Source: a phage
DNA: 64,000 nt
Sequence record: PZ476263.1
Strand: one strand, 5' to 3'
The first letter of the stretch is position 1. Every line of letters begins with the position of its first letter. A program made the translations under genes and the position numbers. Positions 1,349 to 26,601 of this stretch are shown one piece after another. The notes beneath the pieces are model-generated. The model did no database searches. It saw only the letters and a list, made by a program, of their open reading frames with translations, and was not told where the DNA came from.

Positions 1349-1576
1349 TTACTCCTTATTCTTTTCTTTAAGTACATTCAAATTATATGGTAGATAGCCT
1401 TCTAATTCTAACCAATCACCTTTTTCATTAATATATTCTAAAGATTCAATCTTGTCACCCTTTTTCTTTAGAACATTTAAAACTTGATCAACATCAAGAG
1501 AGTTATCGGAAAGCTGAAGTTTATCATCAACATACATACCTTCCCAATCATACCCTCGGAATATTACAATTTTCAT
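1349..1576 (-). CDS. hypothetical protein
   Basis: 75 aa ORF tightly packed in minus-strand operon. Confidence 0.4.
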   Translation of the reverse strand: MKIVIFRGYDWEGMYVDDKLQLSDNSLDVDQVLNVLKKKGDKIESLEYINEKGDWLELEGYLPYNLNVLKEKNKE

Positions 1577-1758
1577 TTTAATCTCCGTATCTTATAATCA
1601 ACTGTCACATTATGCATGACTTTAAGGTACATGTCAAACACTTCTTTGCACATATCACTTCTTACCCTGAAGGAAGCAAGAATGCTTCCATTTTCAGATG
1701 ATAAGATCTCTACATACTCTCCGTACTTAACAATCCATCTTCCCTTTCCACACTTCAT
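1573..1758 (-). CDS. hypothetical protein
   Basis: 61 aa ORF, 4-nt overlap with neighbours (translational coupling). Confidence 0.35.
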   Translation of the reverse strand: MKCGKGRWIVKYGEYVEILSSENGSILASFRVRSDMCKEVFDMYLKVMHNVTVDYKIRRLK

Positions 1759-5572: not shown

Positions 5573-6149
5573 CTGCTAAATCTGTCGCACCACCATTCTT
5601 TCCACTTTTGGTATACCCTTTTAGGAAATCTGGTTGAAGACTTTCACAGACCTTCATCATTTCATCTTTGCCCATTTTGATCTTGACCATCTTCGTCCCT
5701 TTATCATTCATGACCTCCTGCTCTTCACCTGGCAACTTATCACGCGCCCAAGATTTAACCGAAGTTGGTGCAACAGTATGTATGTTTTGCATAGTATACC
5801 CAGAACGGAGCAGTGTCAACTGAATACAGAAAAATAATCCTGCGAGATCTCTCGTTGCATTGCCTGCGGATCCGAAACTAAGAGATTCAAGTACAATATG
5901 CTCAACTTCAAATGATACACAAAGTTCAAGGATACGTCCAGAGATATATTCCATCTGCTCAGCTGGATTTTCAAAATACATTTGCCAATCTTTCGCATTG
6001 GACGACCCTGTAGTCTTCATAACTTCCTTAAAGATCGGTTCACCATTATCAAAAATTACACAAGCGCAGGATGCCATACTCTGATCAATCGATAATAGTT
6101 TCATCTTCTTCTCCTTTTGTCTCTTCGTCAAGGTAATGGTATTGATCAA
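5526..6149 (-). CDS. RuvC-like (RNase H fold) nuclease, putative
   Basis: LLSIDQSMAS (N-terminal catalytic Asp), HIVLESLSFG, GGATDLADAFLIG resembling RuvC carboxylate motifs. Confidence 0.4.
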   Translation of the reverse strand: MINTITLTKRQKEKKMKLLSIDQSMASCACVIFDNGEPIFKEVMKTTGSSNAKDWQMYFENPAEQMEYISGRILELCVSFEVEHIVLESLSFGSAGNATRDLAGLFFCIQLTLLRSGYTMQNIHTVAPTSVKSWARDKLPGEEQEVMNDKGTKMVKIKMGKDEMMKVCESLQPDFLKGYTKSGKNGGATDLADAFLIGRCYLERNGY

Positions 6150-6411
6150 TCAGAAAAACATAGTTTTTAATTTCACCATCCATATAGACCATGAAGGTAA
6201 CGTATTTCTCGTCGTAGAATGGATCTCCTACAACATAGACCTGACATACCTTATCGATACGATTATCGTACCATTGCACTCGCCAAGGCTCTTCGATCAT
6301 AGTCCAAGGACCTTCTACCTTGTAAATCTGGCGACCAGCGCCAGTTACGATAGAGGAGCGGATCTTATCCGCTTCCATTACATCATCAAAGCTTTTAGAA
6401 AAATCTGACAT
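6085..6411 (-). CDS. hypothetical protein
   Basis: 108 aa ORF. Confidence 0.35.
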   Translation of the reverse strand: MSDFSKSFDDVMEADKIRSSIVTGAGRQIYKVEGPWTMIEEPWRVQWYDNRIDKVCQVYVVGDPFYDEKYVTFMVYMDGEIKNYVFLIDQYHYLDEETKGEEDETIID

Positions 6412-18440: not shown

Positions 18441-18653
18441 TTGAAGATTGGTTTTACGGCGGGATCTCTGGATGCTTTGAAGATGAACACCCAGACTTCT
18501 AATTATTTTCCTCTGGAAGATAATCCTCGTAATCATGAGTGTAAAGATTACGATTGCCTATGTTATTGCTGCGGTCATCGATTTGCAGGGCCAAAGAGAA
18601 GCATAATGTGTAATCTTTGTCTTAACAAGAAGAAACCTGTTGACAATAGCTGA
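18441..18653 (+). CDS. Cys-rich small protein
   Basis: ECKDYDCLCYCCGH...CNLC. Confidence 0.35.
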   Translation: MKIGFTAGSLDALKMNTQTSNYFPLEDNPRNHECKDYDCLCYCCGHRFAGPKRSIMCNLCLNKKKPVDNS

Positions 18654-18964
18654 TTAAATATGTAAGATTATTTTGTTGCCTGAGAGATTAGTCATCTTGA
18701 AGGCTGGGTGGGCAAATATAAGTTGGAACCATTATACCACCGACGCGATTTACGCTTTTGGTTGACTGTGACTAAATGGGATGCCCAGTCCATCCTTCTT
18801 TAAAACGGGGAGCCGTCGAAGATTGTCTGATTAGTGATTTACGGATCACTATAGTTTTACTACCACGACAATCTTTTACGGTGTACCCCTTGTCATGATG
18901 ACGAGGTTTAAGGTTATCCTGTCGTTAAATATCCAAAACCTGTTACCACCCACAAGAGAATTTA

Positions 18965-19047
18965 GCGCGGGTGTATCTCAACGGTCTTCTAAACCGTCGT
19001 TAATCGAGTAATTGGAGTATGAAGGTTCGAGTCCTTCCTCCCGCGCT
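18965..19047 (+). tRNA. tRNA-like element, atypical (canonical anticodon arm with UCU and T-arm, but no canonical D-arm or encoded CCA)
   Basis: acceptor GCGCGGG/CCCGCGC; ACGGU-CUUCUAA-ACCGU anticodon hairpin; GAAGG-TTCGAGT-CCTTC T-arm. Confidence 0.35.
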
Positions 19048-19064
19048 AAGTTCTTTTAAATGCA

Positions 19065-19140
19065 GGCCCTTTAGCTCAGTGGTTAGAGCAGGCGACTCAT
19101 AATCGCTTGGTCGCTGGTTCAAGTCCGGCAAGGGCCACCA
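19065..19140 (+). tRNA. tRNA with CAT anticodon; anticodon stem and acceptor resemble enterobacterial tRNA-Ile2 (lysidine) rather than elongator Met
   Basis: GGCCCTT acceptor, GCTC/GAGC D-stem, GGCGA-CTCATAA-TCGCT anticodon arm, TTCAAGT T-loop, encoded CCA. Confidence 0.8.
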
Positions 19141-22050: not shown

Positions 22051-22960
22051 AAAAATTTCCTGCCCATCGTATCTTAATCGGTGAAACTCTGTTATAATAA
22101 GTACAGACAATACCGAGATCCATTACCTGAAATGACAGTAGGGAGATATGATGAAAAAATTTGAAATTGTTCCAAGCAAACCTGAATTTTCCGTAAGTGA
22201 AGACGGGCTGATTATGTTTACCTCTACAGGTACTATTCTTAAGCCGTATGTTGATAAGGATGGTTACCACAGGGTTAGAAATTTCTCTGCTGGAGGTAAA
22301 TCTCATTACATCGCCGTTCATCGCGCCGTTGCTGAGGTTTTTGTTAAAAACCCTAACCCAAAAGTGTTTAAGATTGTTAATCACTTGGATAATGTTAAGA
22401 GCAACAATCATAAAACCAATTTGGAATGGACAACCGAATCATTAAACCGAGTTCATGCAGTTCATGCCAACGGTACAGCATCTGTTAGAAACAATGTTAA
22501 ATTTACAGAAGGTCAAGTCAGAAAGGTGTGTGAACTTTTGAGCTTGGGCTATCGGATAGTTGATATTGTGAAACTTACAGGCGTTGATAGATTCAATGTG
22601 ATGGCAATTAGAAGCGGAAAATCTTGGGTTCAGATCTCTTGTGAGTTTGAAACTTTAAAAGTAGAAAGAAAAGATACACTGTCTGAAAAGACGATTCTTT
22701 GGATTAAAGACCAAATTAATCGCCAAAGGTCAGATGATGAAATACTTTTAATGTCGGTAAGACTTACAAAAGAAGAGCTTGAAAGAGCAAAGAAGATTAT
22801 TTCATTGATGGATTGTAACGACTAATGCTGATGAGTGTAAGCATGTAGGGCCAAGCGGTCCGAAACGATACGCCAAGGATGGAAGATATAGTCTGAACTA
22901 TATGGTGACATATAGCTGCTTAAGCAGGGTTAAGATTAGCGATCTTAATCGAACACAATG
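22051..22960 (+). mobile_element. group I intron 1 (about 910 nt) with internal HNH homing endonuclease ORF
   Basis: S element AAGATATAGTC at 22883-22893, R-like AACGACTAA at 22818-22825, P9 hairpin CTATATG-GTGA-CATATAG (GNRA loop), candidate IGS GCCC near 5' end, 3' end ...GAACACAATG. Confidence 0.6.
22148..22825 (+). CDS. intron-encoded HNH homing endonuclease
   Basis: DGYHRV...HRAVAEVF...NHLDNVKSNNHKTNLEW HNH core; lies wholly between terminase exons. Confidence 0.65.
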   Translation: MMKKFEIVPSKPEFSVSEDGLIMFTSTGTILKPYVDKDGYHRVRNFSAGGKSHYIAVHRAVAEVFVKNPNPKVFKIVNHLDNVKSNNHKTNLEWTTESLNRVHAVHANGTASVRNNVKFTEGQVRKVCELLSLGYRIVDIVKLTGVDRFNVMAIRSGKSWVQISCEFETLKVERKDTLSEKTILWIKDQINRQRSDDEILLMSVRLTKEELERAKKIISLMDCND

Positions 22961-23014
22961 TGGAATTTACATTTATAGGTGTGGACGAAGGCACTCAGTT
23001 TGAGTGGGAGCAGT
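22961..23014 (+). CDS. terL: terminase large subunit, exon 2 (54-nt micro-exon encoding Walker B-like FTFIGVDEGTQFEWEQ)
   Basis: in-frame segment between two intron cores; hydrophobic stretch + DE typical of terminase Walker B. Confidence 0.5.
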
Positions 23015-23341
23015 TAATCTAGCTGCCTCGTACAGTAATGTACGATGAGAAATTCTTGTGAATTGCTGGAAAATCCTTAGAGCTTGTAAAACTACAACAT
23101 GACCTGCAAAGGTGAGTGTGAATGTTAAAAATTTACAAGATTGGACGATCAGCCTCCAAGCCTCTTTACGAGAGGAAGGTTCAACGACTAGCCGAAAGGC
23201 GTAGATCATAAGCAAATGATGATCGAAGTGCAAGACCCCTACCTTATTGGTAGGGTGAAGATATAGTCTGATCTGCATGGTAACATGCAGCAGTGCTTGA
23301 GTGCACGGCAACGAACTTGCGATCCGTTGCGAACATAACAG
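23015..23341 (+). mobile_element. group I intron 2 (about 327 nt, ORF-less)
   Basis: IGS-like GCTGC pairing with exon GCAGU; R-like GTTCAACGACTAG 23179-23191; S AAGATATAGTC 23258-23268; P9 CTGCATG-GTAA-CATGCAG; 3' end ...GAACATAACAG. Confidence 0.55.
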
Positions 23342-24420
23342 TAGAATACATGATGTCTCGTCTTCGTTCCAGTTCTTCTTACCCTTCACGAATGGTAATT
23401 AGTTGTAACCCTGATCCTGATCATTATCTTCGTAAGATGGTTGATTGGTATCTCGATAAGGATGGTTATCCTGATCCTACAAAGGATGGAGTCATTCGAT
23501 ATTTCGTTCGAGTTGATGACCAATACATGTGGGGCGAATCAGTAGAAGAGCTTAAGAAGCGGTACGGTAAGAAATGTAAGCCTGTTTCTTTTACATTTAT
23601 ATCTTCTACTATTTACGATAACCCACCAATGCTTATTAACAACCCAGACTATCTAGCACAGCTGGAAGGTCTTAATGAGGTTGACAGAGCAAGACTGTTA
23701 CACGGCAACTGGGATGCACGTCCTCAGGGTGCTAACTATTTTAAACGTTCTTTTCTTAAAGAGGTTGATGTTCTTCCTTTAGGTGTAGATAAGGTTAGAT
23801 CATACGATAAAGCAGGAACTGAACGTTCTACAGGTAATAAAACACCTGACTTTACAGCCGGAATCGGTGTGGCGAGAGATCAGGACGGAATTTATTATCT
23901 TTTTGGCGATTATTGTGAAGAGTTTGTTGATGAAGGTGATTGGTCTACTGGCAACCTTGGTAGGTTCTGTAAGAAAGCTGGTGAACGAGATACGATCATT
24001 ATGAAACAAGCAATTCATGACGGTGATGATGTTAGAATAATATTCCCTGTTGACCCTGGTCAAGCGGGTATTGCTGAATTCACTACATCTTCCCGAGAAT
24101 TATTAAATCAAGGATTCATTGTTGAGAAAGACCCAACTCCTGGTAACAAGAAGAAGCTTGTACGCTTCTCTCCGTTTGCTAACCTTGCTCAGAACGGATT
24201 TGTTAGGATTGTTAAAAAGTCTTTCCCTTTGGATACCTATGAAGCATTAATGAAAGAGCTTGAATCTTTCAATGGTGAAAGGTCAACAGGGACACGTAAA
24301 GATGACTGGGTGGATGCTATCTCAACCGGAATAAATTTCCTTGAGAAAACAGAAATAGTCAGGGCTGTTACAATACCACGACCTTCTGCCCCAACACTTT
24401 ATTCGAAGTATCGACGATAA
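23342..24420 (+). CDS. terL: terminase large subunit, exon 3 (nuclease domain)
   Basis: continues ...EYMMSRLRSSSSYPSRMVISCNPDP...; acidic nuclease motifs DQDGIYYLFGDY, DPGQAGIA, DDWVDAISTG. Confidence 0.6.
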
Positions 24421-24429
24421 CCGAGGGGA

Positions 24430-25962
24430 ATGATTTTGAAAAATAAGAAAAGTCGTAAAACTAATGTTCGCAAAGCAACTAGCGAAGAATTAAATGTTTC
24501 TCGTCTTCGTATGAGTGAACAAGGTACTTTTGCACTGGCTAAGGTTCAGATCGAAACTGAACGAATGAAAGCCGAAGAAATTAAATGGCCTCAGCTTATC
24601 GGTACTGTTGAAGCTATGAAGCAAGATGCTACGGTAGCGACTGGCCTTGATATGCTGTATACTTTCGTAGAAAAAGCATTTAAGGATTTTAAAGTTATTC
24701 CTGGTAAATCAAAAGAATCACAGGATGCTGCCGACTTTATCACTTATTGTTTGAAGAATATGGAAGGACAAACTCTTCGCCAGTTTGCTCGTGATGCTGC
24801 AACATTTAATGAATACGGAATCTCCGTAGTAGAAAAAGTTTATACGCAGATCCTTACTGGTGAATATGCTGGCAAGTTTAAAATTAAAAATCTTGCTTTC
24901 CGACCACAAGCGTCTTTAAGTCGTAAAAATCCTCTCGTATATAGCGATGACGGTTCTAGAGTAATTGGCGTTAAACAGACCCTTACTTCTTTCAAGAATT
25001 ACACAAATAGCGTATTGGGCAATAGTTCTGGATTTATTGGTTCTCGCAACGGTGATGATGTTATCATTCCTGCAAACAAGGTTATGATCATGACCACTGG
25101 CGGATCTTCGTCTCAGGCACTAGGCGTTTCACCTCTGGTTGCTTGCTATCGACCTTGGCGTGAAAAGGTTCTGATTGAAAACTTAGAAGTTGTTGGTGCT
25201 ACAAAAGATATGGGCGGTGTTATCGAATTAAAGATACCTTCTTCCATACTTAACAAAGCTGCAATTGACCCATCAAGCTACGAAGCTGAAATGGTTCAGG
25301 GTCTAATGGCTGACGCAGCCAACGCCCACTCTGGTGAGCAATCTTTCTTTATGCTGCCTTCTGACACTAAAGATAACGCTCCTTTATACTCAATGTCTCT
25401 GAAAGGCATTGACGGTATGGGTAAACAGTACAGCACTCGTGACCTTATCAGTGATCGTAAGAAATCAATCCTTGATCGTTTGGGAGCAGGATTCCTTAAC
25501 GTGGGTAATGATGATGCTGGTTCTTATAATCTGTCTGAGTCTAAGCAAACAATCCACACTCAATTTGTACAACGTGTAAATGAAATTATTGCTGAAGCAT
25601 TAAATGAGAATTTACTCCCTCAGCTTCTGGCATTAAATGGTATTCGCCTTGAACAAAAAGAAATGCCTTTCATTAAATTCGGTCAGATTGTTGACACAGA
25701 TATGGAAGGATTCTCCAAAGCTGTACAGCGTATGGGTGCTGTAGGTTATCTGCCTAAGACTCCAGAAGTAATCAATAAGATCCTTGACGTACTTGGAATT
25801 GATTATCAGTTGGCAGAAGATATTTCTCAAGAAGACCTTATGTTGCTTCTTGGAGATAATACCAGTCGTTCAGGTGATGGCTTTGCGCCAGGTTCGACAG
25901 GAAACGGGACTGGAAAGATTAGTGCTTCAAGAGACAATTCAATTTCTAACTTAGAAAATTGA
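24430..25962 (+). CDS. portal protein (putative)
   Basis: 510 aa ORF immediately downstream of terminase; size and position typical of portal. Confidence 0.5.
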   Translation: MILKNKKSRKTNVRKATSEELNVSRLRMSEQGTFALAKVQIETERMKAEEIKWPQLIGTVEAMKQDATVATGLDMLYTFVEKAFKDFKVIPGKSKESQDAADFITYCLKNMEGQTLRQFARDAATFNEYGISVVEKVYTQILTGEYAGKFKIKNLAFRPQASLSRKNPLVYSDDGSRVIGVKQTLTSFKNYTNSVLGNSSGFIGSRNGDDVIIPANKVMIMTTGGSSSQALGVSPLVACYRPWREKVLIENLEVVGATKDMGGVIELKIPSSILNKAAIDPSSYEAEMVQGLMADAANAHSGEQSFFMLPSDTKDNAPLYSMSLKGIDGMGKQYSTRDLISDRKKSILDRLGAGFLNVGNDDAGSYNLSESKQTIHTQFVQRVNEIIAEALNENLLPQLLALNGIRLEQKEMPFIKFGQIVDTDMEGFSKAVQRMGAVGYLPKTPEVINKILDVLGIDYQLAEDISQEDLMLLLGDNTSRSGDGFAPGSTGNGTGKISASRDNSISNLEN

Positions 25963-25983
25963 TCTTTGCTTTAAATCAATCTC

Positions 25984-26601
25984 TTGCAAAACGTATCGTT
26001 CAGTGTTAAAATAAATATCACGGGAGCAATGATGGAAAACATTACTATCTCCGACCTTCCTTCACATACCTATCTGTCTCGAATTCAAAAGAGTCGGGCT
26101 GTGAAAAAGGCCAATGAGCTACTTGAAAAGGGCTTCAATAAGGAAGCCTCTATATCAGGAGCCATTGGCTCCGTTCTTATTCAAAAATCCAATCAGCAAG
26201 AAGAAATGATTTCTTATGAAATTATTTACGAACCTGATACTCCTGACCTGCATGGTCAGTGGATGAGTAAAGAAACATTAGTTAAGGCGCAACAGGATTT
26301 CAAAAAGGCTCAAGAAATAGGGGCCGTAACTGAAAACCTTTATCACTTGGTTGATACCGAAGCATTCAAGATCGTAGATCATTGGATTCAGCCAGAATTT
26401 GATGTAACTGTCGCTGCGACAGGTGAAGTCATTAAAGCAGGATCTTGGGTAGCAAAAGTTCAATATACACCTGAAGCATGGGAATTGAAAAAGGCTGGCA
26501 TCGTCGGCGGATTATCTCTTCAATGTGGCGGGATGTTGAATGAAGAAACAAATGAGCTATCCGATCTTGATTTCAGTATCGCATTGGAAGAGGAAGAATA
26601 A
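25984..26601 (+). CDS. head maturation protein (possible prohead protease); start probably at 26029
   Basis: position between portal and scaffold; GGGAG RBS before ATGATG at 26029. Confidence 0.3.
   Translation: MQNVSFSVKINITGAMMENITISDLPSHTYLSRIQKSRAVKKANELLEKGFNKEASISGAIGSVLIQKSNQQEEMISYEIIYEPDTPDLHGQWMSKETLVKAQQDFKKAQEIGAVTENLYHLVDTEAFKIVDHWIQPEFDVTVAATGEVIKAGSWVAKVQYTPEAWELKKAGIVGGLSLQCGGMLNEETNELSDLDFSIALEEEE

Follow-up and report, generated by a model that had tools for sequence, protein, structure and literature searches.

The secondary structure of tRNA is among the most conserved shapes in biology. All known bacterial tRNAs have been described as cloverleaves (Edelmann et al. 2024, PMC11551756), and a 2020 review of natural non-canonical tRNAs covers tRNA-Sec, tRNA-Pyl, allo-tRNAs and the armless mitochondrial tRNAs, with no mention of phages (PMC7609411). 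Here we describe an element at positions 18967-19045 (+) of a 64,000-nucleotide stretch of phage DNA (sequence record PZ476263.1, hereafter called the window), which is probably, together with its relatives in other phages, a functional, phage-specific, non-cloverleaf tRNA-Arg(UCU) gene whose D region would be rewired around the anticodon arm. The analysis establishes the family, its secondary structure, the restriction to arginine anticodons, the location within tRNA arrays and the codon demand.

Among the known systems that come closest is the canonical tRNA-Arg(UCU), as found in E. coli (argU) and in a phage locus (L032, 1522-1598). The family shares with it the 7/5 acceptor/T geometry, a UUCRANY T loop, the anticodon loop CUUCUAA, an A or G at position 73, a GG-A elbow segment, the position within phage arrays and the presumed reading of the host-rare AGA codon. 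Unlike in the canonical molecule, no D hairpin separates the acceptor from the anticodon arm in the family; instead, a D-stem-like helix encloses the anticodon arm and its loop-like segment merges, on the 3' side, with the variable loop. An extra conserved 7-nt bulge and a three-way junction are also present. The D-arm-lacking mitochondrial tRNA-Ser (AGY/UCU) of metazoa and nematodes likewise has no usual D hairpin and a short connector after the acceptor (PMC7609411), the reading of AGN codons being common to both by coincidence. However, these mitochondrial tRNAs are shortened, have lost the elbow contacts and need co-evolved mitochondrial factors (PMC7609411), whereas the phage family keeps a full T arm, the GG motif and a helix of D-stem length in a new position, and would have to work with unmodified bacterial arginyl-tRNA synthetase (ArgRS), EF-Tu and ribosomes. 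A non-cloverleaf tRNA in the E. coli cytosol, which is what we propose for the phage family, has a precedent in mini HisT (Edelmann et al. 2024, PMC11551756). Mini HisT, an engineered molecule in which the D-arm is just missing, depends on a pnp mutation for its stability, whereas the family is natural and widespread, with a D-arm that appears to be replaced by a rewired equivalent. Indeed, E. coli EF-Tu and ribosomes take an engineered D-arm-less tRNA without adaptation, degradation by RNases being the sole barrier (PMC11551756). Finally, tRNA-Sec, allo-tRNAs and tRNA-Pyl (PMC5389517, PMC7609411) have in common with the family that they are natural, of off-standard dimensions and often missed or mis-typed by gene finders; they keep the four-arm order with stem lengths of 8/5, 9/4, 8/4 and 9/3, whereas the family combines standard 7/5 lengths with another strand connectivity.

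In the window copy, the hairpin ACGGU-CUUCUAA-ACCGU (18981-18997) carries the anticodon UCU at 18988-18990, which reads AGA, and the T-arm GAAGG-UUCGAGU-CCUUC lies at 19021-19037. The first-pass annotation of this DNA had pointed out both arms, the U33 and A37 of the anticodon loop and an acceptor-like pairing, and all are present in the sequence. It had drawn the acceptor as GCGCGGG (18965-18971) with CCCGCGC (19040-19046), leaving 9 nt after this pairing and 23 nt (18998-19020) between the anticodon stem and the T stem. The two strands are complementary, but their register has to be shifted: by family comparison, 18967 is position 1 and 19045 the discriminator, so that the tRNA body spans 18967-19045, and the 7-bp acceptor is formed by 18967-18973 with 19038-19044, directly abutting the T stem. 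The two outermost pairs drawn earlier are part of a leader/trailer stalk, which explains why that pairing was seen, and the 2-nt gap that seemed to precede the acceptor 3' strand is in fact a U.U mismatch (U18972.U19039) and a G-C pair of the same helix. In the same way, what was taken for a 23-nt variable region consists of a 7-nt bulge, a D-stem-like 3' strand and a fused D-loop/variable loop. The parts of the element are as follows.

18954-18966 (+): 5' leader arm of the stalk, AAGAGAAUUUAGC, pairing with 19045-19057 (single-sequence fold and covariation)
18967-18973 (+): acceptor 5' strand GCGGGUG, tRNA positions 1-7 (Rfam alignment and covariation)
18974-18976 (+): U8, A9 and U10, invariant in 74/74 members; U8 and A9 are connectors with putative tertiary roles
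18977-18980 (+): 5' strand of a D-stem-like helix (helix X), CUC plus A18980, enclosing the anticodon arm (covariation)
18981-18997 (+): anticodon arm, stem ACGGU/ACCGU, loop CUUCUAA (double changes at 5/5 pairs)
18998-19004 (+): 7-nt bulge CGUUAAU, conserved in scans that left the bulge free
19005-19009 (+): 3' strand of helix X, with C19005 (opposite A18980), GAG at 19006-19008 and U19009 (opposite U18976) (covariation)
19010-19020 (+): linker AAUUGGAGUAU, a fused D-loop/variable loop, of which all but two positions are invariant in scans where they were left free
19021-19037 (+): T arm, stem GAAGG/CCUUC, loop UUCGAGU (Rfam alignment; 98.9% paired, with compensatory changes)
19038-19044 (+): acceptor 3' strand CUCCCGC, abutting the T stem (Rfam alignment and covariation)
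19045-19057 (+): G73 (19045), CUA in place of CCA, and the 3' trailer arm of the stalk, GCUAAGUUCUUUU (family comparison and covariation)

The Rfam tRNA family RF00005 matches 18967-19045 at 35.8 bits (gathering score 29), in an alignment where the D-arm is deleted and about 20 nt are inserted 5' of the T arm. The 3' end of the copy reads GCUAAG and does not encode CCA, so that the earlier statements about a missing D-arm in the usual place and a missing CCA are both borne out. Only 5 nt separate position 9 from the anticodon stem (Rfam aligns 4 nt against 15 model positions), and no D hairpin (stem 10-13/22-25) is found in the canonical place, the partner strand lying 3' of the anticodon arm. 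The idea that re-alignment would bring out an ordinary cloverleaf missed by eye can be set aside, as none exists. No other Rfam family matches at the element, ARAGORN does not call it in the window, and the minimum free energy fold of the single sequence is a non-tRNA structure with a z of only -1.9. The D-arm being apparently rebuilt around the anticodon arm, the element is missed by gene finders.

Relatives were collected by three pattern scans of IMG/VR with different seeds, chosen so that no conserved block was fixed in all three; with the phage loci added, 74 distinct full-length members were obtained. In an alignment of 53 sequences, 98.7% of the 1060 cells of the four-helix model are paired, against 33-46% when the partners are slid by 1-3 columns. 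Both sides have changed at 15/20 pairs, and the covariation score reaches 0.771 versus 0.188 in shuffles. The acceptor (positions 1-7 with 66-72) is 98.9% paired in these 53 sequences, with double changes at 6/7 pairs, and the anticodon stem has double changes at each of its five pairs. The three pairs of helix X (11:42, 12:41 and 13:40) are complementary in all 74 members, a count that comes from a member set seeded on the 3' half only, and they occur in nine combinations: CUC/GAG (41 members, the window type), CGC/GCG (11), CAC/GUG (5), CAG/CUG (4), CAU/AUG (4), CGG/CCG (3), CGU/ACG (3), CCC/GGG (2) and CUU/AAG (1). Full pairing at the two variable pairs was attained in none of 2000 column shuffles; the common combinations span several unrelated acceptor stems, and several of the rarer types represent one acceptor lineage. 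RNAalifold recovered three helices and missed this 3-bp one, which was revealed by explicit pair counting.

Around helix X, the 14:39 position holds A.C or C.A in 55 members and a standard pair (C-G, A-U, U-A or U.G) in 17, the remaining 2 having a clash, a pattern that suggests a wobble-type pair, and the opposed U10 and U43 (U18976/U19009), both invariant, would make a U.U layer that closes the helix. The invariance of U8, A9 and U10 was observed in a scan that left them unfixed. The bulge, with the consensus C-R-U-U-A-A-N, occupies the point at which a variable arm would branch from the anticodon stem, and is shorter in two divergent relatives (UC in L060, AGA in L105). The linker is invariant apart from its two variable positions, GGAGUAUG having been left free in one scan and UAA in another, and its GGA is invariant and kept even in the divergent relatives. 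Judged by these patterns, the gene is under strong purifying selection.

These results bear on the suggestion of the first-pass annotation that the element is a degenerate tRNA-Arg, that is, a pseudogene that would have lost its D-arm and gained an insertion. The window copy has several traits of one, with its missing canonical D-arm and CCA, the U.U mismatch in its acceptor and the absence of an ARAGORN call. However, in 74 distinct sequences the four helices have all been kept by compensatory substitutions, no change is seen in the unpaired core, and a true pseudogene of the family looks very different. The latter is a truncated copy at 6108-6183 (-) of locus L016, which comprises the 5' half up to GCGUAAUU, lacks the T arm and the acceptor 3' strand, and scores 39.8 bits on the family covariance model. 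On this model, members reach 85-103 bits (102.4 bits, E ~4e-25, for the window copy) and ordinary tRNAs at most 34 bits; this score and the Rfam match place the window copy far above chance. The covariation thus effectively refutes the pseudogene reading, to which we give next to no credence. An intron-containing or circularly permuted tRNA gene was also considered and rejected: whichever internal segment is taken out, no anticodon arm is left, and the acceptor strands stand at the two ends.

The order of the conserved blocks suggests how the D region may be arranged in the proposed non-cloverleaf tRNA. The D-stem-like 5' strand, UCUC-A, would run directly into the anticodon stem, and its 3' partner, C-GAGU, would return after the anticodon arm and the 7-nt bulge. 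The segment AAUUGGA (19010-19016) has the same pattern as the D loop of tRNA-Arg (A14, R15, Y16, Y17, G18, G19, A20) and is followed by GUAU (19017-19020), whose final U is a possible counterpart of U48; the first segment would act as a D-loop-like part fused to a variable-loop-like one, just 5' of the T stem. By this pattern, 19014-19015 would be the equivalents of G18 and G19, and 19016 that of A20. The block correspondence is made clear by the canonical argU-type gene of L032, which reads UA-GCUC-A-GUUGGAUA-GAGC-A followed by the anticodon arm, and compared with it the order of D-loop, D-stem 3' strand and anticodon arm looks reversed in the family. The predicted outcome is a three-way junction in place of the four-way cloverleaf, with a standard acceptor stem and standard T and anticodon arms. 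The proposed stack would count 10 layers (5 of the anticodon stem, 1 of the 14:39 pair, 3 of helix X and 1 of U10.U43), and a canonical tRNA has 10 as well (5 of the anticodon stem, the 26:44 pair and 4 of the D stem). This equal count makes an L-shape of normal length plausible, as far as a sequence pattern can indicate, and the invariant U55-C56 of the T loop would remain within reach of the GG.

The anticodon of the putative tRNA is in every case one for arginine. When the anticodon was left free in the search, 70 members had UCU, two had UCG and two CCU; the whole anticodon loop was free in two of the scans, yet always contains an arginine anticodon with U33, A37 and A/C38. Divergent relatives of the same topology have the anticodon ACG (L060) or UCU (L105, with other bulge and linker lengths). 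A sequence-agnostic descriptor applied to 1.63 Mb of tRNA-rich phage DNA retrieved the topology only with arginine anticodons, except for two matches resembling ordinary tRNAs. Position 73 is G or A in 68/74 members (G19045 in the window copy), C35 is invariant, position 36 is U or G, and the A after GG (19016) is invariant. These bases match the bacterial arginine identity set, which consists of A/G73, A20, C35 and U/G36 (PMC9976931), the spatial equivalence of A19016 and A20 being suggested by the sequence pattern. Charging by the host ArgRS would use A/G73, C35, U36 and the A after GG. The CCA end is encoded by 49/74 members; the window copy has G-CUA at this place.

A blastn search with a 106-nt region gave matches in 270 phage records, with identities mostly between 80 and 95%. 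They include Felixounavirus (Felix O1), phi92-like Justusliebigvirus, the 121Q/PBECO4 jumbo phages, Klebsiella KpS8-like and T5-like phages, Streptomyces phages and others, and the pattern scans add about 100 IMG/VR viral contigs. In the Escherichia phages A5-4, A7_1, LTH01 and UPEC06 (Vequintavirinae), to which the window is closest, the copy is unannotated and identical or near-identical to that of the window; in rV5, for which a tRNA-Arg(AGA) has been published, the element is not present at blastn sensitivity. Among cellular genomes, 4 true members were found in 185,579 species representatives, all on short tRNA-rich contigs of metagenome-assembled genomes. The family is phage-specific, conserved and almost always located within tRNA arrays. 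ARAGORN rejects most of its members, and in most of the 270 records the site is unannotated, some others being labelled "tRNA-OTHER" or overlaid by hypothetical proteins; standard annotation therefore appears to under-count phage tRNAs. The 121Q record labels its copy as tRNA-Leu(taa), an assignment that we reject: the UUAA concerned lies in the unpaired bulge without a flanking stem, and the UCU hairpin covaries at 5/5 pairs.

Among the arrays of our loci with at least eight ARAGORN-called tRNAs, a canonical tRNA-Arg(UCU) is present in 0/18, several of them having Arg(ACG), Arg(UCG) or Arg(CCU). In the window, five ordinary tRNAs called by ARAGORN lie directly downstream of the element: Met (19065-19140), followed by Tyr, Gly, Gln and Pro. 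AGA represents 21.8% of the arginine codons in the 41 long open reading frames (ORFs) of the window and 5.1% of those of E. coli O157:H7 (PMC3606486). This use of AGA, far above that of the host, is a reason why the phage would supply a tRNA-Arg(UCU) reading this codon. The authors of the Felix O1 genome paper found Arg(ACG) only and expected, without finding it, a tRNA for the over-represented AGA codon (PMC3185647). The Felix O1 cluster contains the element at 25951-26032, partly under an annotated HNH endonuclease coding sequence (CDS), and it would supply the missing tRNA-Arg(AGA) (NC_005282 is our locus L003, where the annotation remark covers 1551-1943). Both forms of tRNA-Arg(UCU) were seen together at a single locus, the smaller L032, in which the canonical 77-nt gene at 1522-1598 (-) lies 4 nt past the stalk of a non-canonical member at 1611-1692 (-). 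The arrays in which the family is found also contain genes reported by ARAGORN as "tRNA-???" with two-base anticodons (gt, ga, tg), at 928-997 and 2598-2672 of L009, 262-337 of L011 and 1770-1845 of L060, which may be further tRNAs with unusual anticodon loops.

The flanks of 63 distinct members were examined for leader/trailer pairing. In 40 of them, CCA is encoded and there is essentially no such pairing; in nine CCA-less members the acceptor helix is prolonged by 12-15 further contiguous base pairs, and L011 has only 3 contiguous pairs, or about 11/12 when one mismatch is allowed. The stalk of the window copy is 13 bp long (18954-18966 with 19045-19057), and its single-sequence fold is a continuous stem of 18 bp with a z of -5.27. 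The arm sequences are completely different between lineages. Over 8 lineages, 97.5% of the 20-bp helix made of the 13-bp stalk and the 7-bp acceptor is paired, and 16/20 pairs have compensatory changes. A 9/5 geometry like that of tRNA-Sec or allo-tRNAs was rejected, as the relatives have 7/5 stems followed by N73-CCA and the extra pairs are stalk, found in CCA-less members only. In two of the stalked lineages, about 7-8 nt separate the stalk from the start of a downstream tRNA-Met(CAU) (19065-19140 in the window, 10558-10632 in L008), and in L020 about 9 nt separate the end of a tRNA-Met from the stalk that follows. With so little space between stalked members and their neighbouring tRNAs, the stalk may serve to insulate folding within polycistronic precursors.

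Leader/trailer processing stalks are known from rRNA precursors, where RNase III acts, and CCA-less tRNA precursors of T4 need the host RNase BN and the CCA-adding enzyme. The 13-bp helix and the missing CCA of the window copy resemble these two maturation strategies, and, to our knowledge, such a stalk has not been reported for tRNA precursors of bacteria or phages. With a stalk and no CCA, the window copy would need endonucleolytic release, by an RNase III-like activity and/or by RNase P and a 3' nuclease, and host CCA addition; the route would consist of double-strand cleavage or melting, 5' and 3' trimming and, finally, the addition of CCA by the host enzyme. The stalk thus implies, at the level of sequence, a distinct maturation route for this copy, and the stalked, CCA-less precursor subclass points to a route of tRNA maturation that is apparently undescribed. 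Among the options that the first-pass annotation had listed, the best fit is a tRNA that requires processing or the addition of CCA, considering the arginine identity features and a CCA encoded by 49/74 relatives and absent here.

The element could also be viewed as a cis-acting RNA structure of the tRNA-cluster transcript, tRNA-like by descent only, such as a signal for processing or termination, or as something targeted or carried by the HNH homing endonucleases that are common in these clusters. Indeed, the window copy is placed within a 20-bp hairpin ending in a U-rich tract, and HNH endonuclease genes lie directly beside or overlap the element in Felix O1 and Roth39. However, the terminator scan found no intrinsic terminator near the element (a promoter-like site is present at 18640-18668), no HNH gene is next to the copies of the window, 121Q and Stanimal, and 40/63 members have no stalk. 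Moreover, an anticodon loop restricted to arginine, the discriminator and CCA are not expected of a mere processing signal, and we regard a cis-acting role as very unlikely. An obligatory link to HNH homing endonucleases was rejected as well, being inconsistent across loci.

Several points weigh against a tRNA-Arg(UCU) active in translation. (i) ARAGORN, as stated, does not accept most members. (ii) The strongly conserved 7-nt bulge has no role in the model, and the equivalence of A19016 with A20 and the L-shape are themselves deduced from sequence. (iii) The leader, the discriminator and the base that would be C74 are locked in the stalk of the window copy, so that, with no CCA and a U.U mismatch in the acceptor, maturation is not guaranteed. 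(iv) In L032, the canonical tRNA-Arg(UCU) beside the stalked member makes the latter apparently redundant. (v) PNPase can degrade non-canonical tRNAs in E. coli (PMC11551756).

Some of these points would be accounted for if the element were a non-translating mimic of tRNA-Arg, either a decoy or inhibitor of a colicin D-type anticodon nuclease or of another defence, or an RNA titrating ArgRS or a modification enzyme. Such a role would suit the unusual and very conserved core, including a bulge that no tRNA function explains, the L032 arrangement and the existence of a stalked subclass, with the window copy, that lacks CCA; tRNA-targeting defences and phage tRNA countermeasures are documented (PMC12409363). 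However, a nuclease decoy needs neither A/G73, nor an encoded CCA (49/74), nor the full ArgRS identity set, and the element replaces the canonical Arg(UCU) in 18/18 large arrays rather than accompanying it. It is also carried by phages of Streptomyces and of enterobacteria, hosts so different that a universal translational role fits better than a single host defence. A mimic, the main rival reading, is therefore quite unlikely, and the evidence weighs in the same direction against the tRNA-derived regulatory RNA envisaged at first.

A speculative variant of the translational reading, which we consider rather unlikely, is that the fold is a "stealth" one, keeping the surfaces seen by ArgRS, EF-Tu and the ribosome and removing the D-arm/anticodon-stem geometry read by tRNA-targeting nucleases. 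The nucleases avoided, with the same reserve, might belong to host defences, be colicin-type toxins or be the phage's own activities depleting host tRNAs. If so, AGA/AGG decoding would continue while the cellular tRNA-Arg is destroyed, and the bulge and the stalked precursor would be part of this specialisation.

If functional in translation, as we favour, the element would be a natural exception to the rule that the tRNAs used in bacteria are cloverleaves: a widespread tRNA with a different strand connectivity, working with unmodified bacterial machinery and present in Felix O1, 121Q and phi92-like phages. An L-shape could then be built from a three-way junction, and the family would offer a compact test case for the requirements of ArgRS, EF-Tu, RNase P and the ribosome, as well as a scaffold for orthogonal tRNAs. 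No prior description was found in the literature by core sequence or by descriptive terms, in a search outside of which most subscription journals remained. An uncharacterised candidate of a 2023 screen, DNAVirus_2961, sometimes overlaps ARAGORN tRNA-Arg calls and may be the same RNA.

Other features were noted in the arrays and in the window. At the end of a 13-tRNA array, ARAGORN predicts a tmRNA (L037, 6424-6703, tag ANSMNASAFALAA*) on a 64-kb viral contig of Streptomyces-phage type. In the window, a segment of about 140 nt at 18807-18945 (+), between the promoter-like site and the tRNA, folds at -45.6 kcal/mol with a z of -4.1. It recurs at 80-87% identity in about 775 records of T-even phages, always unannotated, and matches no Rfam family; the T6 copy lies in the gap right after rIII and differs from the window by compensatory changes. 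This segment may be a conserved phage non-coding RNA or a mobile structured element. Finally, a group I intron at 22986-23290 (+) (Rfam, 78.7 bits) is located directly upstream of an ORF fragment of the terminase large subunit (23293-24420) and is preceded by an ORF at 22148-22825 (+) with sub-threshold NUMOD4/HNH-type Pfam matches, so that an intron and a homing-endonuclease cassette seem to split the terminase gene (22148-24420).
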